Shown: positions 1 through 15,805 of the stretch, one piece after another | How positions within the stretch are numbered: the first letter of the stretch is position 1 | How the letters are laid out: every line of letters starts with the position of its first letter | Assembly: GCA_965223155.1 (NCBI GenBank) | Contig: CBDCVR010000002.1 | Coordinates: forward strand, 1-15,805 | Direction of reading: 5' to 3' | From: Candidatus Multivoradales bacterium | GTDB taxonomy: Bacteria; Acidobacteriota; Thermoanaerobaculia; Multivoradales; JAHEKO01 | Length of the DNA stretch: 15,805 nucleotides | The notes under the pieces: model-generated | Databases searched by the model: none | What the model was told of the DNA's origin: nothing | The model's input: the letters and a program-made list of their open reading frames with translations, nothing else | Translations under genes and position numbers: made by a program

Positions 1-1
1 C

Positions 2-838
2 ATCCTCGAGAACGAGACCGTGACCCCGCTCGGGGGGACGGCCACTAGTACCTCCACCCTCGCCTACCTGACCACCGACCACCTCGGCACCCCGGTCCTC
101 GCCACCGACGACTCCGGCATCACCACCTGGGCCGGAGGCTTCGCACCCTTCGGGGACGACTGGCAGGCGCAGGCCGGTACCGGGGCGAGTGAGGCGGGGG
201 TCTTTCTGAGGTTTCCCGGGCAATGGGACGATGCGGCCTGGGGCGGGGCGGGAGCGGGGGCGGGGGCCGCCAGCGCCTCAGACCCGGGCCTCTACTACAA
301 CGTCCACAGGTGGTATGAATACCAGACCGGGAGGTACTCAAGAGCTGATCCAGTAGGCCTTCAAGAAGACGATCACTCGCTCTACGGTTACGGGATCCTC
401 AATCCCATCTTCAACGCCGATCCTTTCGGCCTCGCCTCGCTCGCGCCGGGCCAAAAGTGCAAGCGATTTGAAAAGGCCAAACGGAAATTGCAGAAGCTCC
501 TCCCAAACTGTGAGTGCCTAAAGTATTTCCGCGACGAACTTGGGGCGGATCTACCGGAACTAATCAACGGACCACTACCTCAAGTCAAGATCAGGCAAGG
601 CCCTGGAAGCGCCAGCACCCCGTGCGGTAAGGACCCTGGGGCTATCTGGATAAACCCCCGGTTCTGTGGCCTCGGCTACACAAAGACATTGCGCAATATT
701 CTGCTTCACGAGCTAGCTCATTTCGCGGACTGCGATAGGCAGAGATTTCCTCCCGGCGGTCCCACTGAAGAGGGTGCCGAAGCAGAACGAGCGTGCTTTG
801 GGAAGTCCATTGATTCAAAAGCCCGACCTAGGTCATGA
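2..838 (+). CDS. Rhs core C-terminal part plus C-terminal toxin with HExxH zinc-metallopeptidase-like motif (5' end lies outside the window)
   Basis: Rhs-associated core motifs YLTTDHLGTP, LRFPGQW, YYNVHRWY, GRYSRADPVG and DPFGL (419-433). These are followed by a 134-aa lower-GC tail containing LLHELAHF (HELAH at 707-721). The frame is open back to base 2. Confidence 0.92.
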   Translation: MLENETVTPLGGTATSTSTLAYLTTDHLGTPVLATDDSGITTWAGGFAPFGDDWQAQAGTGASEAGVFLRFPGQWDDAAWGGAGAGAGAASASDPGLYYNVHRWYEYQTGRYSRADPVGLQEDDHSLYGYGILNPIFNADPFGLASLAPGQKCKRFEKAKRKLQKLLPNCECLKYFRDELGADLPELINGPLPQVKIRQGPGSASTPCGKDPGAIWINPRFCGLGYTKTLRNILLHELAHFADCDRQRFPPGGPTEEGAEAERACFGKSIDSKARPRS

Positions 839-1374
839 CAACTAGACACAAACTTGCTGGCCTTCTTTTTTTGGCCGTCGGCACGTTCACAAGCACTGGT
901 TGCTCCGCATTTCAGCCGGACCAAATCAACACGACAGGGCTGACGATTGTTCTCTCGGTCCGTGCTAACAGCGAGTCTCCTAGCCCTGTGGCTCGAATCG
1001 AAATTGAGAACGTATCGGAGCGGCAAGTTGCGTTCTCAAAGACATTCGGCATTACAAATGGGCCTTGGCTTCGGCTCCATATCGAAGCTAGCGACGGGAG
1101 ACGGATCTATTACCCCATGGAAGTCGACTTGTTCGACCCGCCCTCCTATCGTTGCCTGTCTCCAGGCGAGCGGATCGTGTGGGAAATTGACCTTCTGGAC
1201 TGGAATGTGGAGGTCGGAGGCAAGGCAAGAGGAGAGGAGAATTTGAGCTTTGATCTACCGCCGGGCCAATACCGAGCCCAGGCGTCCTATTCAGAGCCAG
1301 CGGGAACACGTGCACGCTGCGCCGCTATTAACGGCGTGTCGAAATCGGATTGGGTGCTATTCGAAACGGAGTGA
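835..1374 (+). CDS. Putative cognate immunity lipoprotein
   Basis: ATGA overlap with the toxin stop (835-838). The N-terminus MTTRHKLAGLLFLAVGTFTSTGC has basic residues, a hydrophobic stretch and a lipobox-like Cys. The body is beta-rich. Confidence 0.78.
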   Translation: MTTRHKLAGLLFLAVGTFTSTGCSAFQPDQINTTGLTIVLSVRANSESPSPVARIEIENVSERQVAFSKTFGITNGPWLRLHIEASDGRRIYYPMEVDLFDPPSYRCLSPGERIVWEIDLLDWNVEVGGKARGEENLSFDLPPGQYRAQASYSEPAGTRARCAAINGVSKSDWVLFETE

Positions 1375-1409
1375 TTCCCGTAGGGTCCGAATTCAGATCC
1401 CGCCGGAAA

Positions 1410-1483
1410 GACTGCGGTGCGTGTTTCCGTAACTGCAGGAACAACGGCGGAAATGGCCGTCCGACAAATGCCCGCTACCATGA
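1410..1483 (+). pseudogene. Possible remnant of a Cys-rich toxin C-terminus
   Basis: Reads DCGACFRNCRNNGG, then after a 1-nt frameshift near 1452 WPSDKCPLP-stop. The TGA at 1481-1483 overlaps an ATG at 1480, the same ATGA coupling as the intact toxin/immunity pairs. Confidence 0.4.
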
Positions 1484-1544
1484 GCACCGAGAACTCAACC
1501 GAAGCCGAATGGCTAGAGTGGATCGAGGTCCAGAAACTGCGTAG

Positions 1545-2054
1545 TTTTTTCAACCGCTTCGTCACTGGCTCGGAGTTCTTTTCGTTTTGCTCGCAGGGTG
1601 CTTCCACCTCGCATGCGTCGTGGCCAAGTCCCCATCCGCAGGTTATTTCTCTTCGCTGGACTACCAGGCCTGCGACACCTTGCGACAATCTCTCTTCAAG
1701 GAAGACCTGTCGCTTCTCTCCAACGAGGAGATCGAGATCATCCTGTCTTCCAAGATCGAGCTGCCGCGTGACGCGCGGTTGGCGCTGCTTCAACTAGGCG
1801 GGGATCCTCACGTGTTGGTACTGCCGGCGCCGGATGCCGAGGAGGACCAATCTCTGGCGGCGCTGTTTGAACGTCTTGCAGCCGCCGAGCGCCTTTCATC
1901 GGTGACTCTCCTGCCGTCGCTTCTGGTTCCTTCGACGCTTTCCGTTGCGAAGCTACGGGAAGCCGCCGCGCGCTTTCAAGCGGACCTCCTCTTCAGCTAC
2001 CGGACGCCCTGCCAGCAGTATCACCGAAATCGCTTCCTCAGGGAAATCCGCTGA
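1545..2054 (+). pseudogene. Lipoprotein gene lacking a proper start, possibly also C-terminally truncated
   Basis: The frame upstream of the listed TTG (1587) reads FFQPLRHWLGVLFVLLAGC, a signal peptide with an LAGC lipobox. It is closed by an in-frame TAG at 1542-1544 with no start codon before the hydrophobic stretch. Confidence 0.5.
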
Positions 2055-2117
2055 CAGGATACCTATTTCAAGGGAAGAATCCGGCCGCAAAGGGACACTC
2101 GAAATATGTATCCTTCT
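2052..2117. repeat. Imperfect inverted repeat whose right arm is the IS insertion site
   Basis: Left arm TGACA-GGATAC-C-TATTTC (2052-2069). Right arm GAAATA-T-GTATCC-(TTC)-TGTCA, completed only when 2101-2117 is joined to 3477-3480. Confidence 0.75.
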
Positions 2118-2131
2118 ATGAGTCGGTCGGT
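2118..2131. repeat. Sub-terminal inverted repeat, right end (IRR)
   Basis: ATGAGTCGGTCGGT, the exact reverse complement of 3456-3469. Confidence 0.93.
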
Positions 2132-2134
2132 TGG

Positions 2135-2160
2135 CGTCAAGAGTTTCGTTTCTTCTTTTT
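2135..2160 (-). promoter_or_regulatory. Outward-facing -35 hexamer with A-rich upstream tract, a candidate half of a circle-junction promoter
   Basis: The minus strand reads AAAAAGAAGAAACGAAACTC-TTGACG just inside IRR. The best -10 candidate across the junction (TAGATG, 16-nt spacer) is weak. Confidence 0.45.
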
Positions 2161-2370
2161 GTAGTTTTCCTTAGGTTTGGATCGAGGCTTGGGACGAGCT
2201 TCTATTCGCACTCTGTAGGGTTCTTCTTTGAACCGGTGCATGGTGAGTTTTGCGTCCGTTTAGGAATCGATGCTCCCATCTGTCACACGGTGTCGGGGCC
2301 ACCAAGGATACTTTCGGAGTCATCGAACCTCTCAATCCGTCCTTGCTTGTTGGTCGTCTAGTTATCTCTT
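2160..2370 (-). ncRNA. Putative bridge/seek RNA of the IS1111-group element (ends approximate)
   Basis: Unit 1 (2326 to 2267): ucgaug-a-cucc-gaaa-GUAUCCUU-ggug-loop-cacc-gu-GUGACAGA-ug-ggag-caucga, where both 8-mers match the IS flanks. Unit 2 (2257 to 2192): ggacg-caaaacucaccau-gcac...gugc-gaAUAGAAGcu-cgucc, with a partial match to the element end. Confidence 0.85.
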
Positions 2371-3384
2371 CTACGCTGCCTTGGGAAAGGCTCGGAAGCT
2401 CTCACCTGTCACCCACAGCCTGTGGAGCAACACCGCGATCTTCCTAGCTAGCGCGACCACGGCCTTGCCCTTACCCAGCCTCTCGACCAGGCCCTCAGCC
2501 CATCTCTTGAGTGACGACTCTTTGCGACAGTTCAACGCCGCATGAGCTGCCTGCACCAAGAGTCTGCGCATCTCCGAGTCGCCCTCGCGAGTGATCCGGC
2601 CCCTGACCTCATGCCCTCCTGAGCTGCGAAGCGACGGTCTCAAGCCCAGACACGCTCCGACGTCGCGGCTTTTCTCGAACCGATCCGGACGATCCATCCA
2701 GCCGACGAACGCAAGGCTCACCAGAGGCCCCACACCAGGAACCGTCTGCAGCCGACGGACCAGCTCGTTTGATCTCGACTCGGAGATGAGGTCGTCTTCG
2801 AGATGGTGGATCCGATCGGTCAGCTCGCCGATTGTCGTTACCAGAGGTTCGAGCGCTCCCAACAGGCCGGCTTCGACCGACATCGACGCGTACCGAGCCA
2901 CGAAGCTCTTCGCCGGACATGAGGGCACTCGGTAGCCCTGTGCCCGCAGCGTTCCGCGTACGGAGTTGATCAGCGAGGTCCTGGTCTTCACCAGACTCGT
3001 TCGGACCCGAAGACGCGTCCGAAGCTCTTGGGCCTCACCTGTGCGCTGGTAGACTGGTCGAAGCAAACCCAGATCCAACCGGCTCAAACGAGCCAGGATC
3101 TCGGCGTCGATTCCGTCCGTCTTCAGGGTCGATTCCGCGATCAGACGTACCCGGCGTGGATTGACCACCATCACCTCATGGCCGAGCTCAGACAGCAGTC
3201 GATAGACCCAGGGTGTGACCGGACCGCTCTCGAGCGTCACCTGCGAGCGTTCCCGATTGGCGAAGAACCTTCGCAGGCCCGTCTCGGTCGTCGGAACCCG
3301 CCGGCGAACCGTCACCTCACCGTCTTCTGATACGCCACACACCTCGCTGTACTTCGAGTGAACATCGATGCCAAGATACTCCAT
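2371..3384 (-). CDS. IS110-family transposase/recombinase, 337 aa
   Basis: RuvC-like DEDD residues (GIDVH, TLES, KTDGIDA), TVPGVG motif, and the Tnp-domain serine motif GLRPSLRSSGG followed by GRITREGD. Start placed at ATG 3384 (MEYLGIDV) because AAAGGAG lies just upstream. Confidence 0.96.
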   Translation of the reverse strand: MEYLGIDVHSKYSEVCGVSEDGEVTVRRRVPTTETGLRRFFANRERSQVTLESGPVTPWVYRLLSELGHEVMVVNPRRVRLIAESTLKTDGIDAEILARLSRLDLGLLRPVYQRTGEAQELRTRLRVRTSLVKTRTSLINSVRGTLRAQGYRVPSCPAKSFVARYASMSVEAGLLGALEPLVTTIGELTDRIHHLEDDLISESRSNELVRRLQTVPGVGPLVSLAFVGWMDRPDRFEKSRDVGACLGLRPSLRSSGGHEVRGRITREGDSEMRRLLVQAAHAALNCRKESSLKRWAEGLVERLGKGKAVVALARKIAVLLHRLWVTGESFRAFPKAA

Positions 3385-3462
3385 GGTCGGTCTCCTTTCT
3401 CGGCTCTGATGCCGATTCTTGGTTATCTCCAACTGGCACAGTGTCCCAGCTGGAGACCGACC
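3385..3462 (-). promoter_or_regulatory. Transposase RBS with an anti-SD inverted repeat
   Basis: GGTCGGTCTCC (3385-3395) and GGAGACCGACC (3452-3462) form a perfect 11-bp inverted repeat. On the minus-strand RNA it covers the GGAG Shine-Dalgarno up to the ATG. Confidence 0.7.
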
Positions 3463-3469
3463 GACTCAT
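3456..3469. repeat. Sub-terminal inverted repeat, left end (IRL)
   Basis: ACCGACCGACTCAT, the reverse complement of 2118-2131. Confidence 0.93.
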
Positions 3470-3507
3470 CTCATCTGTCACCGAATTCGCGAGCAAAGAA
3501 TGTAGAA

Positions 3508-3807
3508 ATGCCAGTAGCCCTACTCTACGTGATTCAATACTTCGTCTGGTTTGGTGGCCTCGCTGTTTGGCCAACGCTGCGACTGTTGCAAGGGACGAGC
3601 CGGGCAGAAGACCTCCTGCTCGGATCAATCTTCTTTCTGCACATTGTGGCCCAGACTTGGGCTCTCCGCCTGGTTGCGTCTTGTCGGGACACTACGCCCG
3701 ATTGGCTGCATTGCTTGATCGTCCCATTCTTGGTTGGCGTTCTCTCTATTATCGCTTCAGCGGTCGTCTTAGGGGTTACGCGCCACAAGCGTAAATCCCC
3801 GAAGTAG
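3508..3807 (+). CDS. Small membrane protein (about 3 TM), possible orphan immunity protein
   Basis: MPVALLYVIQYFVWFGG... has three hydrophobic segments and a basic tail. The longer listed ORF (from 3358) starts inside the IS, so ATG 3508 is preferred. Confidence 0.55.
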   Translation: MPVALLYVIQYFVWFGGLAVWPTLRLLQGTSRAEDLLLGSIFFLHIVAQTWALRLVASCRDTTPDWLHCLIVPFLVGVLSIIASAVVLGVTRHKRKSPK

Positions 3808-3867
3808 CCACAGTTCCCGACGACCCGTAGGACGAATGAACGCTCGGAAAGTTTCGTCGTCATCGGG

Positions 3868-4086
3868 ATGCTGAGCATCGCGTTGCCACTCGCGAGCGTC
3901 GCGCTCGTACTGGTAAGAGCTGCCTTTCAACCGAGTGAGCCAGTACCTAGAATCGGCAATTTCATGCTGCTTTCTTATGTGGTCTTCTTTCGTCTTCTTT
4001 CTCCTGCAATACGCACACGCGATTTGGGTCGCTCGAGGCATCTACTGGTACCTCAATATCTGGAAAGCAGTGGCGAAGAAAAGTAG
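3868..4086 (+). CDS. Small hydrophobic protein, possibly 5'-damaged
   Basis: Two hydrophobic segments. The hydrophobic reading continues upstream (FVVIG), and an out-of-frame ATG at 3836 could be the original start. Confidence 0.35.
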   Translation: MLSIALPLASVALVLVRAAFQPSEPVPRIGNFMLLSYVVFFRLLSPAIRTRDLGRSRHLLVPQYLESSGEEK

Positions 4087-4115
4087 CATTCGGCACTCAC
4101 TCTGATGTGCGTTGC

Positions 4116-4574
4116 ATGAAACAAGCGCGAAACATCGCGAGAAGTGTCGCAGCCTTGCTACTCCTTCTTGTTTCGATACTCGCTTGTTCCACTCGCTGGG
4201 ACGACCCCGAGCTCACTGAACTGTTGAAGCAGCTGGACTCCGGACAAGTAGAAATTTCGGCTTCAACAACGAACTCTCTTTCAAGAGAGGAGGTGGCTGA
4301 GTTTCTCGATCGTCTAGTCTTGCTGGCTCCCGCTCCTAGCATTGGCCGGGTCAGCGCGTGGCACGAGTTCTGTCGATTCACGGTCGAAACAGAAGAATCC
4401 GAATCGCTTTTGATCAAAGTGGCAACGAGGGACTCCCTGAGTGGTCAGTCCATCGTTATTGTTAGAGATCAACGCAGCAGTTCGCCAAGGATGAGCTTCC
4501 ATGCTGGCGCATCTTTCCATGCTTGGCTCGTTGGCAGGCATCTTTGTCCTACCAAGTTGCAGCAACAACGCTGA
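4116..4574 (+). CDS. Putative lipoprotein, orphan immunity candidate
   Basis: MKQARNIARSVAALLLLLVSILAC signal peptide with an ILAC lipobox, 152 aa. Confidence 0.68.
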   Translation: MKQARNIARSVAALLLLLVSILACSTRWDDPELTELLKQLDSGQVEISASTTNSLSREEVAEFLDRLVLLAPAPSIGRVSAWHEFCRFTVETEESESLLIKVATRDSLSGQSIVIVRDQRSSSPRMSFHAGASFHAWLVGRHLCPTKLQQQR

Positions 4575-4633
4575 ACACGTGCCCAGTCCCTCAGACCCAA
4601 GGGGTCATCCAGGCGGGTGACCGGCCCCTCTCG

Positions 4634-5104
4634 ATGAGGCAGTCCAGTTTCACTCGGACGTTCGGCTTGGTGGCATTGCCCGTGTCGTGCTTTATGACAC
4701 TGGTTGCCGTTCTTAATGCGATTCTCATCTGCTTGTTCGAGCCCGACATCAATTCTTCAGATGCGAGCTTCAGTTCCGGGGCATCTCGGTTCGTCATCGA
4801 TTACCTTGAGGTATTCCTCGGGGCTTTTCTTCTGTATTCCATTCTGGGACTCGTGGGATCGATCGGATTGGTCCGGGGCCGCAGGTGGGGGCGACTTGTC
4901 TGGATTGTCCTACTCAGCCTAGGAATTTTCTGGTGTCTGAGCGCCGTCCTGCTTGAGATCCTGTACTTCCCGGGCCCCAACATTTCGCCATCGTCCGGGC
5001 TTCGCTCCCTAGACCCCGCGCTCTTTCAGTGGGTCATCGTTGCGTTCGGCCTAGCGTTGGCAGCTTCTCTTTCCTGGCTACTATCTCGTCTCCTGAGGAA
5101 TTGA
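4634..5104 (+). CDS. Integral membrane protein (about 4 TM), orphan immunity candidate
   Basis: Four hydrophobic helices with a GLVRGRRWGR loop. ATG 4634 is preferred over the overlapping upstream start. The stop lies immediately before the Rhs homology begins. Confidence 0.65.
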   Translation: MRQSSFTRTFGLVALPVSCFMTLVAVLNAILICLFEPDINSSDASFSSGASRFVIDYLEVFLGAFLLYSILGLVGSIGLVRGRRWGRLVWIVLLSLGIFWCLSAVLLEILYFPGPNISPSSGLRSLDPALFQWVIVAFGLALAASLSWLLSRLLRN

Positions 5105-5129
5105 GGACCCTTCGAGCGGCAAGGCCCGC

Positions 5130-8100
5130 GTGACCTCGATTGCGGGCGACTGCCCGGCCTGCGGCCTCGGACCCAACAGCCAGCTCGTCTACGACGACCC
5201 GGACCATCCGCTGCTCCCTACCCGCTCGATCGACGGCCGCGGCACGGTCACGGCCATGGCCTACGACGCCAACGGCCGCATGACCTCGAGGACCGAAGCC
5301 CTCGGCACTCCTGAGGAGCGCACCACGGCTTGGAGCTACGACGATCCGGCCTTCCCGGCCGTCGCCACCACAATCGAAGAGCCCTCGACAACTGCCGGAG
5401 CCAGTGGAGCCAGTGGAGCCAGCCGCACCACGACCCTCGTTCTCGGCGCCGACGGCCATCCCACCACCCGCACCGTCTCGGGGGTCGAGGCCGCAAGCGC
5501 CTTCTCGCTTACCACCACCACCACCTACACCGCCGAGGGCCAGATCGAGACGATCGATCCGCCCGGCTTCGGCACCGACGACGTCACCGTCTTTACCTAC
5601 GACCCCGCCCGGGGCGGCCAGATCCCGCTCTCCCGCACCGACCCCGTCCTCGGCAGCCTTCCGAACGGAGGCGCCACCACCTACGCCTACGACCCCTTCA
5701 ACCGCCGAACCTCGGTCACCGACCCCAACGGCGTCGAGACCGTCACCGCCTACGACGCCGCCGACCGCGTGACCTTCGTCACCCACAAGGGCACGACCGC
5801 CGCCGAGGACCTCGTCACCGAGAACCGCTACAACGCCTTCGGGGACCTCGCCCTCACCATCCTGCCTCAAGGCAACGCCATCGAGTACGCCTACGACTCC
5901 GCCGGACGCCTGACCTCGATCGGGCGCGGCCCCGCCCCCGGGGCCCTCCTCGAAAGGACCCTCTACGAGCTCGACGCCGCCGGCAACCGCACCCGCGAGA
6001 CGCTCCAGGGCTTCGACGGCTCGGCCTGGACCACCGCCTCCGAGACCGCCTACCTCTACGACTCCCGATGCCAGCTCGACAAGATCGTCCGCGCCCCCGG
6101 AACCCCCCAAGAAGCCGTCACCGAGTACCGCTACGACTGCAACGGCAACCTCGAATCCCTCTGGGACGCCAACCACTCCTCGGCCTCCGATCCCCCGACC
6201 CAGAGCTACACCTACGACCGCCTGGACCGGTTGACCGGGATCGACCAGCCCTGGGCAACTGGGCAACCAGGAGAGATGGCAACCACCACCTACGCCTACG
6301 ACGTCCAGGACCACCTCGTTGCCGTCACCGACGCCGAGGGCAACACCACCGCCTACGTCTACTCCGACCGGGATCTTCTGACCCGCCAGGACTCCCCAGT
6401 CTCCGGGGCCTCGACCTTTGCCTACAACGACCACGGCGAGCTCGTCTCCGAAACCGACGGCCGCGGGGTCACCACCACCCGGACCATCGACGCCGCCCGC
6501 AGGGTGACCTTCGTCGATTCCGAAGAGAACGCCCTCGATACCGCCTACACGTACGACGACCCCGCCGTTGCCTTCTCGGCCGGACGCTTGACCGCTATCT
6601 CCCGCAACGGCCACTCCATCGACTACGCTTACGACCGCTTCGGACGCACCATCCAGGACGGCACCCTCGCCTACGCCTACGACACGAACGGCAACCGCAC
6701 CGCAGTCACCTACCCAGGCGGCGTCACCGCCACGACCACCCACGACTACGCCGACCGGGAGGAGACCCTGGCCGTCACGGATGGCGGCAGCGGAGGAGGC
6801 ACCACCAACCTCGTGACCGCCGCCGCCTATCTCCCCTCGGGCCCCCTCACCTCCCTCGCCCTCGGCAACGGCTTGGCCGAGACCCGATCCTTCGACTCGA
6901 GGTACTTCCCGGCCGGCATCACCGTCCCCGGACGACTCGACTGGACCTACTCGACCGACACGATCGGCAACATCCTAGAGATCGCTGACACCGGAGGAGG
7001 AGGCGACCGAACCTACACCTACCAGGACGTCCACTACTTCCTCACCTCGGGCACCGGACCCTGGGGCAGCCTGGCCTTCACCTACGACAAGATCGGCAAC
7101 CGGTTGTCTGAGACCCGGGACGCCGGCGGTTCTCCCCAGAACCGGCCCTACGCCTACCCGGCTTCGCCTTCAGGAGGCAACCTCCCCAAGCTCGCCTCGA
7201 TCACGGACCCCGCGGGAGACCGTCTCGAGCGCTTCTTCTTCGACGACGCCGGCAACCAGACCTACCGCGCCACTCAGACCGCCAAGCACCGGCTGAGCTA
7301 CGATGCCCTGGGACGGATGAGCCAGATCAAGACCGACTCGGACGAGACCGCCGGGGCCCTCGTCACCCTCGCCTACGACGGCAGAAGCTTCCTCCGGGAG
7401 GCCACTCGAAGCCCCTTCCCCGGCCAGCCCGCCACCGTCACCACCAACCCCACCTACAGCTCCGACGGGCGCCTCATGCACAAGGCGACGAGCGAGGTGC
7501 TGGGACCGGACGACCCGAGAGGCGAGGGGAGTGCCACCAGCGACGCCTACGTCCTCTACTTCGCCGGCAGGCCGGCCGGCATCCTCGACAATGAGACCGT
7601 AATTCCACTCGGTGGACCGCCGACCAGCACCTCGACCCTCACCTACTTGACCACCGACCACCTCGGCACCCCCGTCCTCGCCACCGACGCCAGTGGAGCC
7701 AGTACCTGGAGTGGAGGCTTTGAGCCCTTCGGGGACGACTGGCAGGCGCAGGCCGGTACCGGGGCGAGTGAGGCGGGGGTCTTTCTGAGGTTTCCCGGGC
7801 AATGGGACGATGCGGCCTGGGGCGGGGCGGGAGCGGGGGCGGGGGCCGCTAGTGCCTCAGACCCGGGCCTCTACTACAACGTCCACAGGTGGTACGAGCC
7901 GGGGACGGGGAGGTATGGGAGGGTCGATCCGCTGGGGTTGGTTGCTGATATCCATCTCTATCGCTACGCGAAGCAGGACCCCTTGACTTGGATCGATCCT
8001 CTCGGGTTGCAGCTTGTGAAACCTCCTGACATTCCCTACTTTGAGCCACCTGGTGACAACCTACCCCCCAACTGTTCGGCTGGACCCTGGGTCTTCGATG

Positions 8101-8456
8101 ACTTCGGCGTTCGGAGTGAACCCCAAGAAATGCAATGGGTGCTCCGGCGCGCTCAGCGAAAATGGGTGCGGATCCCACCTGCTTTTGGCATAGCACTACC
8201 AATCCCGACCGGCAGTTGTGACTGCTTCTATGTTCCGAGAGGCCTCATTCAGCCCCATCAGCGAGTAGAGCGGTGGAAGCGTCGTCTGGAATGCGACGGC
8301 TGCCCCGCCGGAGAAGAAACGCGGCTACGGGATGCAGCAGAACCGGAAAGTCAGTGGGAAGACAGAGTTCCTGTCCTACCTGCGAATGGTGTTCGGAAGA
8401 CGACTGCTCCGGGCTGTCTTTGCCAACCAATTCTGACTGAAGCCCCGCCGTCATGA
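5130..8456 (+). CDS. 5'-truncated (orphan) Rhs/YD-repeat cassette with an unrecognised Cys/Pro-rich C-terminal toxin
   Basis: Many YD repeats, a complete core terminus (DHLGTP, RFPGQW, DPLGL at 7995-8009) and a 148-aa tail. DNA homology to the long copy begins abruptly at 5106 (equivalent to 11518), so the GTG at 5130 is an internal Val codon. Confidence 0.92.
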   Translation: MTSIAGDCPACGLGPNSQLVYDDPDHPLLPTRSIDGRGTVTAMAYDANGRMTSRTEALGTPEERTTAWSYDDPAFPAVATTIEEPSTTAGASGASGASRTTTLVLGADGHPTTRTVSGVEAASAFSLTTTTTYTAEGQIETIDPPGFGTDDVTVFTYDPARGGQIPLSRTDPVLGSLPNGGATTYAYDPFNRRTSVTDPNGVETVTAYDAADRVTFVTHKGTTAAEDLVTENRYNAFGDLALTILPQGNAIEYAYDSAGRLTSIGRGPAPGALLERTLYELDAAGNRTRETLQGFDGSAWTTASETAYLYDSRCQLDKIVRAPGTPQEAVTEYRYDCNGNLESLWDANHSSASDPPTQSYTYDRLDRLTGIDQPWATGQPGEMATTTYAYDVQDHLVAVTDAEGNTTAYVYSDRDLLTRQDSPVSGASTFAYNDHGELVSETDGRGVTTTRTIDAARRVTFVDSEENALDTAYTYDDPAVAFSAGRLTAISRNGHSIDYAYDRFGRTIQDGTLAYAYDTNGNRTAVTYPGGVTATTTHDYADREETLAVTDGGSGGGTTNLVTAAAYLPSGPLTSLALGNGLAETRSFDSRYFPAGITVPGRLDWTYSTDTIGNILEIADTGGGGDRTYTYQDVHYFLTSGTGPWGSLAFTYDKIGNRLSETRDAGGSPQNRPYAYPASPSGGNLPKLASITDPAGDRLERFFFDDAGNQTYRATQTAKHRLSYDALGRMSQIKTDSDETAGALVTLAYDGRSFLREATRSPFPGQPATVTTNPTYSSDGRLMHKATSEVLGPDDPRGEGSATSDAYVLYFAGRPAGILDNETVIPLGGPPTSTSTLTYLTTDHLGTPVLATDASGASTWSGGFEPFGDDWQAQAGTGASEAGVFLRFPGQWDDAAWGGAGAGAGAASASDPGLYYNVHRWYEPGTGRYGRVDPLGLVADIHLYRYAKQDPLTWIDPLGLQLVKPPDIPYFEPPGDNLPPNCSAGPWVFDDFGVRSEPQEMQWVLRRAQRKWVRIPPAFGIALPIPTGSCDCFYVPRGLIQPHQRVERWKRRLECDGCPAGEETRLRDAAEPESQWEDRVPVLPANGVRKTTAPGCLCQPILTEAPPS
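5397..5423 (+). repeat. 9-bp tandem repeat GGAGCCAG(T/C) x3, encoding GAS x3
   Basis: Three units here versus one unit at the homologous site 11809-11817. Confidence 0.9.
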
Positions 8457-9232
8457 AGCGAATCTGTCTCAGCATAGCTCTTCTCGCTACCTTGTTGACC
8501 TGGGGTTGTGAGCGCCCAGGGCCATCGCAAGCAACCTCCGCGCCCTCCTACAAGCTCGGCGACAAGGCCCCTCTCGAACTGAGTTCCTTCCCGTCCGGCG
8601 TCTGGCCTCGTGCAGCAAGTCTCTTTGAGAGCTTTTGGAATGGAGATCGCGCAGCGGGGAGGTCGCTCACCCAACTTTACGAGGAGAAGGGATTCGTCAC
8701 GTCCGCCGCGGTCATCGCGTTTGCGCTCGACCAAGAGCTTCCCGGTCAACTAAGTCCTCGTTTCATGTGGTCTGAGAAGTCCTTCACCCCTGAAGTCGAG
8801 TCGATCCAGCGCCAGGGGGCTCGGAGAATCTCAAGAGCTGTGTGGAATTCTGAGTTCGATGATGCCGTTGCTCTCGGCGAAGAGCTACTGAGACCCGGGG
8901 AGACCATTCTCCAGATTCCTGTCGAGTGGGCAACTGCAGCCTTTGCTCAGGCAGCCGCAACCCACGGCCTGAACTCGGTCAACTTCTCTCGGCTGGAAGC
9001 AGCCTTCCGAACGTACACTACTCTGGTGGGTGAAACGGCTACGATACCGATCAGTCTTCGAGGGAATAAAGACATCTGGGCTTGGATTTCCTTGTCCACT
9101 GCGTTGGCAGATCTCTCTCAGCCCAAGATGGCTGCTGCCGTTCTTGCCGTTGGCGTGTCGTTGAACGAAGATTCTGATCGCTCTCTCAAGAAGAGGGTGC
9201 AGAAACGAATTCGGCAACTCCTAGAGACTTGA
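8453..9232 (+). CDS. Putative cognate immunity lipoprotein, alpha-helical
   Basis: ATGA overlap with the toxin stop. MKRICLSIALLATLLTWGC signal peptide with a lipobox-like Cys. Confidence 0.78.
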   Translation: MKRICLSIALLATLLTWGCERPGPSQATSAPSYKLGDKAPLELSSFPSGVWPRAASLFESFWNGDRAAGRSLTQLYEEKGFVTSAAVIAFALDQELPGQLSPRFMWSEKSFTPEVESIQRQGARRISRAVWNSEFDDAVALGEELLRPGETILQIPVEWATAAFAQAAATHGLNSVNFSRLEAAFRTYTTLVGETATIPISLRGNKDIWAWISLSTALADLSQPKMAAAVLAVGVSLNEDSDRSLKKRVQKRIRQLLET

Positions 9233-9283
9233 CGACGAGCGATCGTCGAGGTCTGCTCGCAAAGCCTTGTGCACCCCAAGGAG

Positions 9284-9584
9284 CGGAACCCCCCAGGAGG
9301 CCATCACCGAGTACCGCTACGACTGCAACGGCAACCTCGAGTCCCTCTGGGACGCCAACCACGACTCCGCCTCCGACCCCCCGACCCAGAGCTACACCTA
9401 CGATCGGCTCGACCGCCTGACCGCCATCGCCCAGCCCTGGGCAACTGGGCAACCAGGAGAGATGGCCACCACCACCTACGCTTTATGGAACACGTTCCAG
9501 GACTGCAATCAGAAATGTGGCAAGCTATGCGGCCCGGATGAGCCTTGCTCAGATCAATTTCAGTCAGTAGCTGCAGGCAACTGA
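9284..9584 (+). pseudogene. Internally deleted Rhs cassette: 198-bp core fragment fused to a Cys-rich toxin tail
   Basis: 9284-9481 aligns with 6098-6295 (GTPQEA...MATTTYA). It then continues in frame into unrelated LWNTFQDCNQKCGKLCGPDEPC...-stop. Confidence 0.8.
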
Positions 9585-9587
9585 CAA

Positions 9588-9851
9588 ATGCGTGCTCGAC
9601 CTGCTTCTTGGCTGTCTCCACGAAGTGCTGTTGTTGTGCTTGTCCTTGTATTCCTCGCCGGCTGTTGGTGGCGTATGGGACTGCTAGAGAAGGCTCTCGT
9701 CCTTCGCGATGTGGTCGGCATTGAAGTGGAGAAGCTGGACACAGCGCTGGATCGCGTGTGGTTTGTGGTTGGCTCGCCTTTGGCGTTCCTGGCTATTGGC
9801 CTGGCACTCTTGGGACTAGCGCACATCCTGCTTCGTGTTCTGTCTAGATAA
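9588..9851 (+). CDS. Small 2-TM protein, probable immunity protein of the deleted cassette
   Basis: Starts 3 nt after the remnant's stop. Two hydrophobic helices, the first ending in FLAGC. Confidence 0.6.
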   Translation: MRARPASWLSPRSAVVVLVLVFLAGCWWRMGLLEKALVLRDVVGIEVEKLDTALDRVWFVVGSPLAFLAIGLALLGLAHILLRVLSR

Positions 9852-9880
9852 GCGTCGCTGCTCGTGGAGTGATGCTCTTT
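9851..9880 (+). terminator. Possible intrinsic terminator or hairpin
   Basis: AGCGTCGCT/AGTGATGCT 9-bp stem with two G-U pairs, followed by only CTTT (weak U tract). Confidence 0.3.
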
Positions 9881-9987
9881 AGGTGAGGCCCGACATGCTG
9901 AGATGTCTAGGCCTTCGAGTTGCATCGATCTCGAAAAGGCTGCTCAACCATCGACCGACCATCCCATCCGCCACCTCAATCGTCGAA

Positions 9988-12900
9988 TTGCGTTTCCGCG
10001 AACGCGCCGGCCGGCGCCGCCAGGCGGCCCGGCTGTTGCTCCTCGCGGCGAGCGGGATCGCCTTCCTCTGGGCCACCCCGGCGGCGGCCCAGAACAACTG
10101 CTTCGGGGACGTCACCTGGGGCGGCGACGTCGACTCGACGATCGCAAAGCCCGAGAACTGCACCGCGGACACCCGCTGCTATCCACCCGAGCTTGCCGGC
10201 TCGGGAGTTTCGTTCGCTCCGGGCTGCGACCCATCGGCCGGGCCCTGCGACGTCACCGTCACGGCCCAGCTCCGCTTCCCCGGCAACCGGGACAACGAAG
10301 ACTTCGTCGATGCCTCGGGCCTCGCCTACAGCTTCGCGACCTTTGCCGTCTTCGACAACACCGGCTCCGGCGTCGGCGGCTGCGGTGTTGCCGGCGCGGT
10401 CATCCAATGGGACACCGGCACCGCGACCATCCGCGGCCAGGCCAAGAAGGGCGACATCTTCACCATCGTCGCCCGCGCCTGCCCGTGCTCGCCCGAAGGC
10501 CTCTGCCCCCTGTGCGAGAAGACCGAGTCCTTCGTCATCCCGATCGGCAGCCCGCCGCCCCAGGACGACTGCGACGACTGCAAGGCCTGCCCGCTGCCGG
10601 GCGCTTCGGCCGGCGGCGGCGGGCCCAAAGGGACCACCGAAACCAACTCCGGCCCCGAGACGCTCGTCTACTACACCGCCGGCGGCACGGGCGCGCCCGG
10701 CACCCCCGGCGCCGACGAGCACGCGGCCACTCTCGGCCACGGCTTTGCCCACAACTTCTCCGAGCGGCTCGTCGCCGTCCCCGACGACCCGTACGACAGC
10801 GACCGCATCTGGATGCTGACCCGCAAGGGCACCTTCCGCCAGTTCTGGAACCTCCAGGGCGGCGAGTACCTGGGCACCGCGCCCTCGGACGAGTACCGCA
10901 CGCTCTTTGCCACGGCCGCGGGCTACGAGCTTCGCGGCCTCGACGGCACGGTCCAGAGCTTCGATGCCGCCGGCGTCTGGACCGGCACGGCCGACGCCTC
11001 GGGCAACGCCACGACCCCTGCCTACGACGCCTCCGGTCTTCTCACCGCGGTCGCTCTCCCCGACGGCAGACAAGAGACCTTCACCTACCACCCGGCCGGC
11101 TCCGGCCAGGACGGCAAGCTTGCCTCGATTGCCGAGGTCGGCATCGACGGCACCTCGACCCTGACCTGGACCTACACCTGGTCCGGAGACACCCTCGTCC
11201 GGATCGACGCCCCGGACGGCACCGCTCTCGCCTACGGCTACGACGACCCGCGCCACCCGGGCTTTCGAACTCTGACCGAACGGATCGGCACCGACGCGAG
11301 CCGCCGCGTCGAGCGCGGCTACGCCTACGACGACGAGGGCAACGTCGTCCAGACCTGGAGAGGCGATACCGTCCCCGCCGTTGCCGGAGTGAGCGCTTCG
11401 CTGCCCGGATCGAACGCTGTCGATCACGAGACCTTCGCCTTCGACGACCCGGTCAACCCGACCGTCACCACCAGGACCGACGCTCTCGGCAAGATCGCGA
11501 CCTACGCCATCGGCCGCGACCCTTCGAGCGGCAAGGCCCGCGTGACCTCGATTGCGGGCGACTGCCCGGCCTGCGGCCTCGGTCCCAACAGCCAGCTCCT
11601 CTACGACGACCCGGACCATCCGCTGCTTCCCACTCGCTCGATCGACGGCCGCGGCACGGTCACCGCCATGACCTACGACGGCAACGGCAGGATGACCTCG
11701 CGCACGGAGGCCCTCGGCACCCCCGAGGAGCGCACCACGACCTGGAGCTACGACGATCCCGCCTTCCCGGCCGTCGCGACCACCATCGAGGAGCCCTCCA
11801 CAACTGCTGGAGCCAGCCGCACCACCACCCTCGTTCTCGGCGCCGACGGCCACCCCACCACCCGCACCGTCTCAGGGGTCGAGGCCGCTAGCGCCTTCTC
11901 GCTGACCACCACCACCACCTACACCCCCGAGGGCCAGGTCGCAACGATCGATCCCCCCGGCTTCGGCTCCGACGACGTCACCGGCTTGACCTACGACCCC
12001 GCCCGCGGAGGCCAGATCCCGCTTTCCCGCACCGACCCGATCGTCGGAAGCCTTCCCAACGGCGGCGCCACCACCTTCGGCTACGACCCCTTCAACCGCA
12101 GGACCTCGGTCACCGACCCCAACGGGCTCGAGACCGTCACCGCCTACGATGCCGCCGACCGCGTGACCTCCGTCATCCAGAAGGGCGCGACCGCCGCCGA
12201 GGATCTCGTCACCGTCCATCAGTACACCGCCTTCGGCGACTTGGAGCGCACCATCCTCCCCGAAGGCAACGCCATCGAGTACGCCTACGACTCCGCCGGA
12301 CGCCTGACCTCGATCGGGCGCGGCCCCGCCCCCGGGGCCCTCCTCGAAAGAACCCTCTACGAGCTCGACGCCGCCGGCAACCGCACCCGCGAGACGCTCC
12401 AGGGCTTCGACGGCTCGGCCTGGACCACCGCCTCCGAGACCGCCTACCTCTACGACTCCCGATGCCAGCTCGACAAGATCGTCCGCGCCCCCGGAACCCC
12501 CCAAGAAGCCGTCACCGAGTACCGCTACGACTGCAACGGCAACCTCGAATCCCTCTGGGACGCCAACCACTCCTCGGCCTCCGATCCCCCGACCCAGAGC
12601 TACACCTACGACCGCCTGGACCGGTTGACCGGGATCGACCAGCCCTGGGCAACTGGGCAACCAGGAGAGATGGCAACCACCACCTACGCCTACGACGTCC
12701 AGGACCACCTCGTTGCCGTCACCGACGCCGAGGGCAACACCACCGCCTACGTCTACTCCGACCGGGATCTTCTGACCCGCCAGGACTCCCCCGTCTCCGG
12801 GGCCTCGACCTTTGCCTACAACGACCACGGCGAGCTCGTCTCCGAAACCGACGGCCGCGGGGTCACCACCACCCGAACCGTCGATGCCCTAGACCGGGTG

Positions 12901-14801
12901 ACCTTCGTCGATTCCGAAGAGAACGCCCTCGATACCGCCTACACGTACGACGAGGCCCGCCGTTGCCTTCTCGGCGGGCAGGCTCACGGCCATCACCCGA
13001 GACACCCAGTCGATTGACTACGCCTACGACCGCTTCGGACGCACCATCCAGGACGGCACCCTCGCCTACGCCTACGACACGAACGGCAACCGCACCGCAG
13101 TCACCTACCCAGGCGGCGTCGCCGCCACGACCACCCACGACTACGCCGACCGGGAGGAGACCCTGGCCGTCACGGATGGCGCAACCTCGACCAACCTCGT
13201 GACCGCCGCCACCTACCTTCCCTCAGGCCCGCTCACCTCCCTCGCCCTCGGCAACGGCTTGGCCGAGACCCGATCCTTCGACTCGAGGTACTTCCCGGCA
13301 GGCATCACCGTCCCCGGACGACTCGACTGGACCTACTCGACCGACACGATCGGCAACATCCTAGAGATCGCTGACACCGGAGGCGGCGGCGACCGCACCT
13401 ACACCTACCAGGACGTCCACTACTTCTTGACTTCAGGCACCGGACCCTGGGGCAGCCTGGCCTTCACCTACGACAAGATCGGCAACCGGTTGTCTGAGAC
13501 CCGAGACGCCGGCGGCTCTCCCCAGAACCGGCCCTACGCCTACCCGGCTTCGCCTTCCGGAGGCAACCTCCCCAAGCTCGCTTCGATCACGGACCCCGCG
13601 GGAGACCGTCTCGAGCGCTTCTTCTTCGACGATGCCGGAAACCAGACCTACCGTGCCACTCAGACCGCCAAGCACCGGCTGAGCTACGATGCCCTGGGAC
13701 GGATGAGCCAGATCAAGACCGACTCGGACGAGACCGCCGGGGCCCTCGTCACCCTCGCCTACGACGGCAGGAGCTTCCTCAAGGAGGCGGCGAGAAGCCC
13801 CTTCCCCGGCCAGCCCGCAACCGTCACCACCAACCCCACCTACAGCTCCGACGGGCTTCTCATGCACAAGGCCACCAGCGAGGTGCTGGGACCGGACGAC
13901 CCGAGAGGCGAGGGCACCGCCACCAGCGACACCTACGTCCTCTACTTCGCCGGCAGGCCCGTCGGCATCCTCGAGAACGAGACCGTGACCGACTTGGACG
14001 GCGGCACCTCCTCGAGCTCGACGTTGACGTACCTCACCACCGACCACCTCGGCACCCCCGTCTTGGCGACCGATGAAACGGGGACTACCACCTGGGCCGG
14101 AGGCTTCGCACCCTTTGGAGCAGACTGGCAGGCCGAGACGGGTACCGGGGCGAGTGACGCCGGAGTCTTCCTGCGCTTCCCCGGCCAGTGGGACGACCCG
14201 GCCTGGGGTGGGGCCGGGACGGCGGGCACTAGCGCCTCAGACCCGGGCTTCTACTACAACGTCCACAGGTGGTATGAGCCGGGGACGGGGAGGTACGGGA
14301 GGGTTGATCCGTTGGTTCGATTCTCAGAGCTACCAGACTACTACGTCTACGCTGGCGCCGAGCCCCTTACATCAATAGATCCGCTCGGTCTCCTTAGGGT
14401 CGACTGCGAAAGTTGCGAGAAGATCCAGAGGGCAAGAGAGAATGTAGCGAAGCGAATCTTCCTTCTCCGCACTACAGGCACTGCGATCGATCCCTCCGGA
14501 ACCAACGTGCCGACAGCCGTTACGAATTGTGCAGAAATTCGCGTCGGCAGTGCTTCTCTTACCGACACCTTCACACAGCGACAGGAAGGTAGATTCCCGG
14601 AGTCTCCCTGTGTCTTTCTATGCACCGGAGTCCACGAACGGGTCCATCGTCGAGCGTGCACACAACTCGGCGCATCTGTCTACAATGGCCTGACAGAGAG
14701 CGAGAGAGAGCTTCCCGCCTACAACGAGCAGCTCAAGTGTTTGTTGGCTGCTTGCAGCTGGCAGCAGCTTAGGCCTTACCCGAGCGGGAGTAACTCCATG
14801 A
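9988..14801 (+). pseudogene. Full-length Rhs toxin gene with signal peptide and HExxH C-terminal toxin, frameshifted as sequenced
   Basis: ORFs 9883-13017 and 13199-15259 join into one frame if one G at 12954/12955 is removed (GAG-G-CCC versus GAC-CCC in the 5130 copy). The N-terminus RERAGRRRQAARLLLLAASGIAFLWATPAAA-Q is a signal peptide. DPLGL is at 14378-14392 and HERVH at 14633-14647. The start (TTG 9988) and the end (TGA 14801) are inferred. Confidence 0.82.
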
Positions 14802-15259
14802 GATCTCGAACAGTGCAACTAGTCGTTGTCGTTCTTGCATGCCTGACTTTCCCCGCACTATCCTGCTTCCGCGACACAGCGACACAACGATCGGGCTCTA
14901 CTCCACGTGGACAGCGAACGGATGTCTTTGGTGCGTCCGAGTCTAGAGGCCCTTCACCAGAGATTGACGCGTTGGAGATACCTAGGCTCGAGTACGAGCC
15001 GGACATGCTTGCTGTGTTGGTCGCCAGCATACAAGCAACTGTAGGGGGGCGGGCAATCGAGGTTAGGTACAAGGTGCTCGAAGACGGCTCCGTCCGTGAT
15101 TGCTCGGTCGTACGCGTCGGTGGATCAGAAGATCTGATCTCAGAACTGTCGGCGAACGACAGAGACCGCCTCTGTAGAGCCGTTGAGCTAAGACGGTACG
15201 CAGCACCACCAGAAATGCTCACGGTTAGCTTCCAATTCGGCACGCCAGCATACGGCTAG
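14798..15259 (+). CDS. Putative immunity lipoprotein with a TonB-C-terminal-like region, in frame with the toxin as sequenced
   Basis: GGGAG lies 7 nt before ATG 14798. MRSRTVQLVVVVLACLTFPALSC signal peptide. IEVRYKVLEDGSVRDCSVV resembles the TonB_C pattern by eye. Confidence 0.68.
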   Translation: MRSRTVQLVVVVLACLTFPALSCFRDTATQRSGSTPRGQRTDVFGASESRGPSPEIDALEIPRLEYEPDMLAVLVASIQATVGGRAIEVRYKVLEDGSVRDCSVVRVGGSEDLISELSANDRDRLCRAVELRRYAAPPEMLTVSFQFGTPAYG

Positions 15260-15284
15260 ATCTACAACCCCTTCAATTCTGACC

Positions 15285-15805
15285 GCCGAGACCCGATCCT
15301 TCGATGCCCGGTACTTCCCGGCAGGCATCGCCGTCCCCGGACGACTCGACTGGACCTACTCGACCGACACGATCGGCAACATCCTAGAGATCGCAGACTC
15401 AGGAGGCGGCGGCGACCGCACCTACACCTACCAGGACGTCCACTACTTCTTGACTTCAGGCACCGGCCCCTGGGGCGCTCTCGCCTTCACCTACGACAAG
15501 ATCGGCAACCGGTTGTCTGAGACCCGGGACGCCGGCGGCTCTCCCCAGAACCGGCCCTACGCCTACCCGGCTTCGCCTTCCGGAGGCAACCTCCCCAAGC
15601 TCGCTTCGATCACGGACCCCGCGGGAGACCGTCTCGAGCGCTTCTTCTTCGACGACGCCGGCAACCAGACCTACCGCTCGACTCAGACCGCCAAGCACCG
15701 GCTGAGCTACGATGCTCTGGGACGGATGAGCCAGATCAAGACCGACTCGGACGAAACCGCGGGGGCTCTCGTCACCCTCGCCTACGACGGCAGGAGCTTC
15801 CTCCG
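15285..15805 (+). pseudogene. Start of another orphan Rhs cassette, running off the window
   Basis: Near-identical to 13262 onward (AETRSFD...LAYDGRSFL). It begins 25 nt after the preceding stop with no canonical start codon. Confidence 0.88.

Follow-up and report, generated by a model that had tools for sequence, protein, structure and literature searches.

A putative two-loop bridge RNA with a handshake-like extension in its target loop, from an IS1111-type element of a Multivoradales bacterium

Introduction

The bridge RNA of IS621 contains two short handshake guides (bases 81-82 and 166-167). As described in the accessible parts of two reports, these lie 3' of the right-half guides (RTG and RDG) and of the core-pairing bases, and they pair with positions 6-7 of the non-cognate top strand (PMC11208158; PMC13626964). 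According to the accessible text of the second report, pairing of the handshake bases with cognate DNA blocks strand exchange, and the wild type goes from one pair before exchange to three after it (PMC13626964). In IS621, the handshake guides govern how efficiently bridge recombination runs and whether it goes toward insertion or excision. In bridge RNAs for genome editing, they count as a design parameter. In the portions of the literature available to us, handshake guides are linked to IS621 or to the IS110 group, and IS1111 appears in introductions, tables and reference lists (PMC11208158, PMC13626964, PMC13604230; their supplements may hold more).

Elements of the IS1111 group have a non-coding region, with the RNA, downstream of the transposase gene, and they have subterminal inverted repeats, going by the available parts of two papers (PMC11187229; PMC11208160). 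These repeats are given as 7-17 bp in what we could consult of PMC11208160. The accessible portion of PMC11187229 adds a mark of the group, the motif GL-P----S(T)G, and a rule for the RNA: the match to the top strand of the target lies 5' of the match to the bottom strand.

Here we analyze a stretch of 15,805 nucleotides (the window: contig CBDCVR010000002.1, positions 1 to 15,805) from a Candidatus Multivoradales bacterium. An earlier, sequence-only reading of the window had picked out two strings, at 2199-2205 and 2277-2286, and had proposed that both are guides that reach two bases into the partner DNA, around a TCT core.

Results

An IS1111-type element in 15 copies

The window contains a previously undescribed member of the IS1111 group of the IS110 family, with a bridge RNA or seekRNA of the known kind. 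It is 1,362 bp (window 2113-3476), and its transposase is on the minus strand. Features inside it, apart from the RNA, are:

2371..3384, minus strand: transposase ORF (ATG at 3384, stop codon 2371-2373, 337 aa), with a DEDD RuvC-like domain and a Tnp domain
2118..2131, no strand: subterminal inverted repeat, arm at the RNA-gene end (14 nt, 100% complementary to 3456-3469)
3456..3469, no strand: subterminal inverted repeat, transposase-proximal arm (pairs with 2118-2131)

The transposase has the N-terminal DEDD RuvC-like domain and the C-terminal Tnp domain of the IS110 family (PF01548 or DEDD_Tnp_IS110, 9.4e-25; PF02371 or Transposase_20, 4.7e-21), and it scores 241 bits against the NCBIfam model for "IS110 family RNA-guided transposase" (NF033542, cut-off 140). 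Its relatives in the PDB are ISCro4 (9t56) and IS621 (8wt6). In the C-terminal domain, GLRPSLRSSG fits the GL-P----SG motif of the IS1111 group. The arms of the inverted repeat lie 3 and 5 nt inside the core, and their length is within the range given for IS1111. Downstream of the transposase gene is a long non-coding region with RNA elements (2192-2326) on the same strand as the transposase. A scan of 1800-3800 against Rfam (E up to 1) found no bridge-RNA family; the sole match was a chance snoRNA.

The genome contains 15 copies of the element at about 100% identity (14 intact and one interrupted), and the 15 left and 15 right junctions have common ends. There is also a sister element, with 81% DNA identity, in two copies. 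We note that one copy of the window element (C7:11414-12782) is split by 1,369 bp of inserted DNA, and element positions overlap briefly on either side of the insert. (Contigs of this genome are given C numbers, and relatives of the element L numbers.)

In Logan contigs of public runs, the depth is about 70 over the element vs about 2 over the flanks. Contigs from four DNA runs that cover the region had no joints, and neither an excised form nor a circle was seen in them; loose contig ends at about 2103-2110 and 3477-3490 fit no more than a repeat boundary. Strings for the circle junction and the tandem junction had no match in the element's own genome. The sequencing runs listed for the region include no RNA run.

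Two other features lie near the ends. First, there is an 11-nt perfect inverted repeat (3385-3395 / 3452-3462), which is kept in relatives and through which the inner portion of the end repeat pairs with the ribosome-binding region that directly precedes the start of the transposase (GGAGACCGACC-ATG). This pairing could mask the start site of the transposase in read-through transcripts. Second, the minus strand at 2135-2140 reads TTGACG, which is an outward-facing -35-like hexamer about 17 nt inside the RNA-gene end; it is kept as CTTGAC in all of the relatives inspected. In a circle, where the two ends meet, the hexamer could become part of a junction promoter that drives the transposase, of the kind described for other IS1111 and IS110 elements. 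A promoter scan of the linear sequence did not list this hexamer.

The crossover core and the target sites

All copies of the element in its own genome occupy one short motif. In the orientation of the element, empty sites read GGTGAC-AG-GATAC (found as GTGACAGGAT 18 times in the genome) and occupied sites read GGTGAC-AG-ATGAG...CATAGA-AG-GATAC. Two loci are present in both states (C11 vs C14 and C7 vs C14), with flanks that are identical at 45/45 positions on each side, so the duplicated core is 2 nt, AG, which is CT on the plus strand. The crossover core CT is common to target and donor, and the boundaries of the element follow from the same observed sites:

2115..3474, minus strand: body of the insertion sequence (1,360 bp; 1,362 with one copy of the core)
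2113..2114, no strand: core CT (AG in element orientation), copy at the RNA-gene end, from empty vs occupied sites
3475..3476, no strand: core CT, transposase-proximal copy, from empty vs occupied sites
2108..2112, no strand: target half-site GTATC (GATAC in element orientation), flank
3477..3482, no strand: target half-site GTCACC (GGTGAC in element orientation), flank

As an uninterrupted string, the target site is GGTGACAGGATAC.

We considered a TCT core and rejected it, as the third base is missing from the empty sites (18 sites and the two exact locus pairs); an empty site with TCT as the core has no match in the genome. The apparent TCT (2115-2117 and 3474-3476) results from CT and a neighboring element base, which follows CT at one junction and precedes it at the other. 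The guides had been offered as independent support for TCT and for the boundaries that go with it, and that argument fails: the empty sites give a CT core and a body of 2115-3474.

Loci that are empty in the large contig C14 (C14:574430 and C14:366086) are occupied in two small contigs, C11 and C7. The presence of both states in one assembly suggests that, in the population sampled, the element has transposed recently or still does.

The target is one arm of a palindromic REP-like repeat (window 2043-2112 and 3477-3488). A second half-site, GCTGACAGGATAC at 2050-2062, is unoccupied, slightly degenerate, and in reverse orientation. Elsewhere in the genome, sites are found as inverted pairs about 70 nt apart, with stems that covary around a conserved loop. 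In two relatives (L039 and L050), the end of an element is directly followed by what resembles the start of a member of its family (CTCATAGA-G-ATGGG and CTCATGGA-AG-A-ATGGG). The arrangements are reminiscent of a tandem or a junction, with one base missing or one extra.

Two loops in the non-coding region

On the transposase strand, the non-coding region is predicted to fold into two loops, one for the target and one for the donor. We compared the loops to those of relatives from 300 genomes of the same order, 15 further regions of those genomes, and 120 metagenome stretches. The parts of the target loop are:

2267..2326, minus strand: target-binding loop, with the basal stem UCGAUG-A-CUCC / GGAG-CAUCGA (from the fold and from covariation in relatives)
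2305..2311, minus strand: 5' target guide GUAUC plus CU, complementary to the core AG and the right flank GATAC (2108-2114)
2288..2304, minus strand: distal hairpin UGGUG/CACCG between the target guides, with a compensatory change from U-A to A-U in the 81% sister
2282..2286, minus strand: 3' target guide GUGAC, the sense of the left flank GTGAC (3477-3481 of the plus strand)
2280..2281, minus strand: core-pairing AG of the 3' target guide (A48 and G49, invariant in 71/71 aligned relatives)
2277..2279, minus strand: handshake-like extension AUG, which matches the first three bases of the element at its transposase-proximal end (3474-3472)

And those of the donor loop are:

2192..2257, minus strand: donor-binding loop, with basal stem GGACG/CGUCC, stem UGCACC/GAGUGCG and distal hairpin GGUUC/GAACC
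2241..2247, minus strand: 5' donor guide CUCAC plus CA, which pairs with +2 to +5 of the element (transposase-proximal end) and with the core G; +1 is mismatched
2199..2205, minus strand: 3' donor guide AUAGA plus core-pairing AG (CTTCTAT on the plus strand)
2197..2198, minus strand: positions equivalent to the handshake guide of the IS621 donor-binding loop or DBL (RNA CU), which fit no target base here

In an alignment of 71 relatives, the basal stem of the target loop has double changes at columns 4/98 (38 of them), 7/95 (29) and 12/91 (6). The donor-loop stem UGCACC/GAGUGCG is invariant in 71/71 relatives, and the hairpin above it is variable.

Along the RNA, the target loop reads GUAUC-CU, the distal hairpin, and then U-GUGAC-AG-AUG; the 3' side of the donor loop reads A-AUAGA-AG-CU. 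GUAUCCU is the complement of the top strand in element orientation and lies 5' of GUGACAG, which is the order of matches described for IS1111 RNAs. To map the RNA onto IS621, we took the plus strand of the window as the top strand (core CT), so that the target is ...GTATC-CT-GTCAC... and the donor circle would read ...CTCAT-CT-TCTAT.... With this choice, the 5' guide of each loop corresponds to LTG or LDG, as it has the same sense as the left half and the core, and the 3' guide corresponds to RTG or RDG, as it is the complement of five right-half bases (positions 10-14). The 3' guide is followed by the core-pairing AG, by 2-3 unpaired bases, and by the basal stem.

The complementarity of the 5' target guide to the junction extends by one base, into the first element base at 2115 (2304-2311 vs 2108-2115; AAGGATAC vs GTATCCTT). 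The extra U doubles as part of the U.G pair that closes the distal hairpin and is missing in many relatives, so this additional match is probably due to chance.

Guides follow targets and element ends

Both target guides are replaced in the sister element: GUAUCCU becomes AAAAGGGU, and GUGAC becomes GUGCC. The two sister copies (C15:372319-373687 and C13:297851-299225) lie within GGT(G/T)CC-AG...A(C/G)-CCTTT(T/C). Their left flanks are GGTGCC and GGTTCC, and AAAAGGGU fits the sister's own flank, (A)ACCCTTTT. AUG and AUAGAAG are unchanged in the sister, and the distal hairpins of both loops have compensatory changes. Because guides and flanks changed jointly, in what amounts to a natural retargeting, this comparison identifies the bases of the target guides. 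In 91/112 relatives, the RNA carries the complement of the core and of the first five bases of the right flank, with 6 or all 7 positions matching, and in 34/43 the 3' target guide fits the left flank at 4 or more of 5 positions.

In one of the sister copies, the core place of the right junction is AC, which fits the sister's own 5' guide (GU). It seems, then, that on one side the element tolerates a target whose core is not CT.

The donor guides follow the ends of the element instead. The third letter of AU(A/G)GA tracks the element end CAT(A/G)GA in 98 of 99 unique junctions (A-A in 25 and G-G in 73), within a collection whose metagenome part was drawn with a pattern that fixes the donor guide and is thus biased to one kind of donor end. 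In the 5' donor guide, the letter opposite element position +4 tracks the element in 47/49 unique relatives. As donor-guide letters track the element ends, 2199-2205 is the donor guide AUAGA with the core-pairing AG. Judging from these sequence comparisons, both loops are programmable: the target guides change with the target, and the donor guides follow the element ends.

The target-loop extension

Both of the strings in the earlier reading are where it had placed them: CATCTGTCAC is found at 2277-2286 and at 3472-3481, and CTTCTAT at 2199-2205 and 2113-2119. CATCTGTCAC has no third place in the window, and 0.01 matches were expected; two matches were reached in 0/200 shuffles. On the RNA, 2277-2286 is GUGAC-AG-AUG, that is, the target guide, the core, and a 3-nt extension. 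The match of this string to the recombination product was thus correctly noticed, but the length of the extension was not, as the core is CT and the extension is 3 nt rather than 2 (CAT on the plus strand, 2277-2279). The RNA matches the integrated junction over 10 nt vs 7 nt for the empty target. Within the window alone, a 3-nt extension has a chance of 1 in 64.

In the register of IS621, A and U of the extension face donor positions 7 and 6 (T3474 and A3473), and G faces position 5 (C3472), for 3/3 pairs. At the same register in its own target (C2112, T2111 and A2110), 0/3 pair. If we consider just the two positions that are handshake guides in IS621, then A and U (2279-2278) fit the donor's T and A, and they fit the target's C and T at 0/2. 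The window element goes from one pair before exchange to two after it, or three if the third extension base is counted.

We also asked how widely this holds, with the three extension letters as h1, h2 and h3. Across 84 unique relatives, h2 is U in 79, h1 is A in 51 and G in 31, and h3 is G in 37. (Relatives were counted if their loop could be parsed and their 5' guide fitted their own right flank; they are related sequences, mostly from the set drawn with the pattern that fixes the donor guide.) At the four handshake-equivalent positions, they have a mean of 0.58 Watson-Crick pairs with cognate DNA vs 2.49 with non-cognate DNA, and 82/84 gain pairs; in this count, element positions +1 and +2 were taken as AT where the locus stopped short of the end. 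For 40 unique elements, the end was located via the inverted repeat and the guide via the left flank. Here h1 is the same as +1 in 31 (and is G opposite T in 8 more), h2 as +2 in 33, and h3 as +3 in 15, with a few mis-hit rows included in the counts (the parse of the target loop failed or mis-hit in, for example, L033, L046, L050, L061 and L118, and these rows were retained). Since h3 is G in just 15/40 and 37/84, the match of the third base in the window may be due to chance.

The tip of the element, ATG, is nearly invariant in relatives down to about 34% protein identity, so covariation is rarely visible. The RNA does follow the tip in the three relatives with variant tips (3/3, three cases only): L090 (CTGGG, with CU), L119 (GTAAA, with GU) and L172 (AATGGA, with AA). 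L099, which is a sister of L090, has the tip ATGGG and AU in the RNA. Among elements with an ATG tip, h1 is C in 1/39 and h2 is A in 1/38. The conservation of the extension and these three covarying cases are observations; so is the assignment of the guides above.

Could the extension instead be a conserved part of the scaffold, either read by the transposase or needed for the fold, with its identity to the tip frozen by descent and without any pairing to DNA? Neither the tip nor the AU of the RNA varies much, so their agreement is mostly uninformative about covariation, and only the three variant tips test the pairing. Also, h3 is variable, and several relatives have a mismatch at h1 or h2 under an unchanged ATG tip: CUG in L028, AGG in L029, and AGU in L045, L048, L185 and L186. 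But the three relatives with changed tips have the matching letters C, G and A, of which C at h1 and A at h2 are rare among ATG tips; two of these relatives also have a change in the 5' donor guide, which is independent of the extension (..CCAG-C in L090 and UAUAC-C in L119); and the extension is at the same place as the tested handshake guide of IS621. We consider a scaffold role without pairing to be unlikely, and we prefer a handshake-like role for the extension.

In a more distant relative (L181, 33% identity), the tip is CATTCG, and by eye, its +1 base is common to target and donor, so that cognate and non-cognate pairing cannot be separated. In one clade, h1 is G and equals the element's own target base R1, which is a cognate match and would hinder exchange in IS621.

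We also observed that in one clade of metagenome loci (such as L071, L082, L095 and L113), G follows the core-pairing AG in both loops and the first right-flank base of the target is also G, so that the target loop matches its own target one base further.

The donor loop

The other string, CTTCTAT, also occurs at 8225-8231 of the window. With 0.66 matches expected, and three reached in 5/200 shuffles, this 7-mer match is not beyond chance when taken alone. It had been read as including two target-derived bases, CT. These bases belong to the core, and as the donor also has the core, the string contains no extension. As CT is present in the donor circle, the string is not specific to the product. 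The proposal to swap 2199-2200 as handshake bases misses its aim for the same reason: these bases are core-pairing.

The donor-loop positions that do correspond to a handshake guide are 2198 and 2197 (RNA CU). A symmetric second handshake would need GA at these positions; CU does not pair with target positions 7 and 6 (C2112 and T2111), so in the window element, a donor-loop handshake in the sense of IS621 scores 0/2. The U can pair with cognate donor position 6. The handshake reading of the guides therefore holds for the target loop, where the bases are at the IS621 handshake place, and not for the donor loop.

Among 71 unique elements, the first donor-loop letter after the core-pairing AG (k1) equals the first target base (R1) in 40 vs 23.6 in shuffles, which ignore kinship. 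When k1 is A or G, it is found almost solely with R1 of A or G, and when k1 is C, it is found with any R1. We do not claim this association as covariation: on a tree of guide-masked RNA scaffolds there were 4, 2 and 1 independent pairs that differ in R1, which is too few for power, and k1 was mostly unchanged in them.

In the subfamily of the window element, CU lies opposite targets that start with CC in about half of the members (both copies of the sister, L023, L026, L028 and L029). With such targets, the C of CU pairs and the U can wobble. The targets of the window element and of L024 begin with GA... and GC... instead. The simplest reading is that these two elements appear to have been retargeted without a change at the donor-loop CU.

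A model for strand exchange

We think it quite probable that this is an IS1111-type element with a two-loop bridge RNA, in which AUG of the target loop acts in a handshake-like way, CTTCTAT is the donor guide and core, and the handshake positions of the donor loop do not fit the target.

In our model, the complex of transposase and RNA would bind GGTGAC-AG-GATAC, in the hairpin-loop motif, via both target guides, and the circular element would be bound via both donor guides. Cleavage would occur beside CT, the top strands would be handed over, and the ...CAT-CT of the donor would then pair with AG-AUG of the target loop. AUG cannot pair with the target and fits the CAT of the element end, so it should be able to pair only following hand-over of the donor's top strand, or at the junction once integrated. 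This pairing may stabilize the exchanged state. With the integrated junction fully paired with the RNA over 10 nt, insertion would be favored and excision disfavored, as in IS621. The boundaries and guides in this scheme are observed, but the role of AUG in strand exchange and in its direction is our interpretation of how they fit together.

A different possibility is that the extension aids excision: the RNA would find the element's own end via the 10-nt match to the junction (3472-3481), and a circle would form, in keeping with the weight that seekRNA work on IS1111 elements gives to end recognition. The better fit of the RNA to the integrated junction than to the empty target speaks for this, and the accessible text of PMC11187229 reports that flanking target halves and the RNA are needed for minicircle formation by IS1111 and IS110 elements. 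In IS621, however, handshake bases that pair with the substrate before exchange inhibit the reaction, excision included, according to the available part of PMC13626964, and no circle or tandem junctions were found in the genome. We think that a role in excision is quite improbable, and we favor the exchange model. Finally, a TCT core with symmetric 2-nt extensions on both guides is hardly credible: TCT is present at both junctions (2115-2117 and 3474-3476) and both strings match junctions, but the empty sites lack the third base, CTTCTAT is expected in the donor circle as well, and the next RNA bases, CU, fit at 0/2.

Comparison with known systems

The window element resembles IS621 in having a DEDD/Tnp recombinase, a CT core, and a two-loop RNA in which each loop reads both strands (PMC11208160). 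It shares a 5-nt guide for the right half, followed by core-pairing bases and then by 2-3 bases that fit the non-cognate DNA. The number of pairs before and after exchange is 1 and 3 in IS621 vs 1 and 2 in the window element (3 with h3). Unlike in IS621, the RNA and the transposase gene are encoded opposite to the CT strand, with the RNA downstream of the gene; this opposite-strand encoding is the "reversed order" that the accessible part of PMC11187229 notes for IS1111 elements. Also unlike IS621, the window element has long (14-nt) subterminal inverted repeats, left-type guides of 5+2 nt, a 3-nt target-loop extension, and no donor-loop handshake. ISCro4 (PDB 9t56) is the best-scoring solved relative of the transposase (E 3.3e-10), but it is distant, and the similarity is mostly in the C-terminal domain.

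Among IS1111 elements with a seekRNA, ISEc11, ISPa11, ISKpn4 and ISPst6 share the downstream non-coding region, the inverted repeats, GL-P----SG, the order of matches in the RNA, and insertion into a repeated palindromic target, as far as the available text of PMC11187229 describes them. For these four elements, that text describes two target matches and neither a donor loop nor a product-specific extension. The window RNA is unrelated to these elements at the DNA level, and no Rfam family matched it.

The corrected core and boundaries matter for anyone who would reprogram or assay this element. It also offers a natural case in which 15 active-looking copies have just the target-loop handshake in place. 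More speculatively, the handshake principle might be older than the split between IS110 and IS1111 and be one-sided here, with the target loop fixed as AU to suit AT and with donor-loop bases that are not rewritten upon retargeting; this is possible, but we hold it only tentatively. If it were true, then a single handshake would be enough for strand exchange, and its strength would tune the spread of a retargeted element.

Overall, the comparison of sequences supports an extension of the handshake principle to the IS1111 subgroup, on one side only. The RNA of an IS1111-type element, although encoded on the opposite strand, has the same register as that of IS621 (a 5-nt guide, the core, and bases that fit the partner), which supports a common mechanism.
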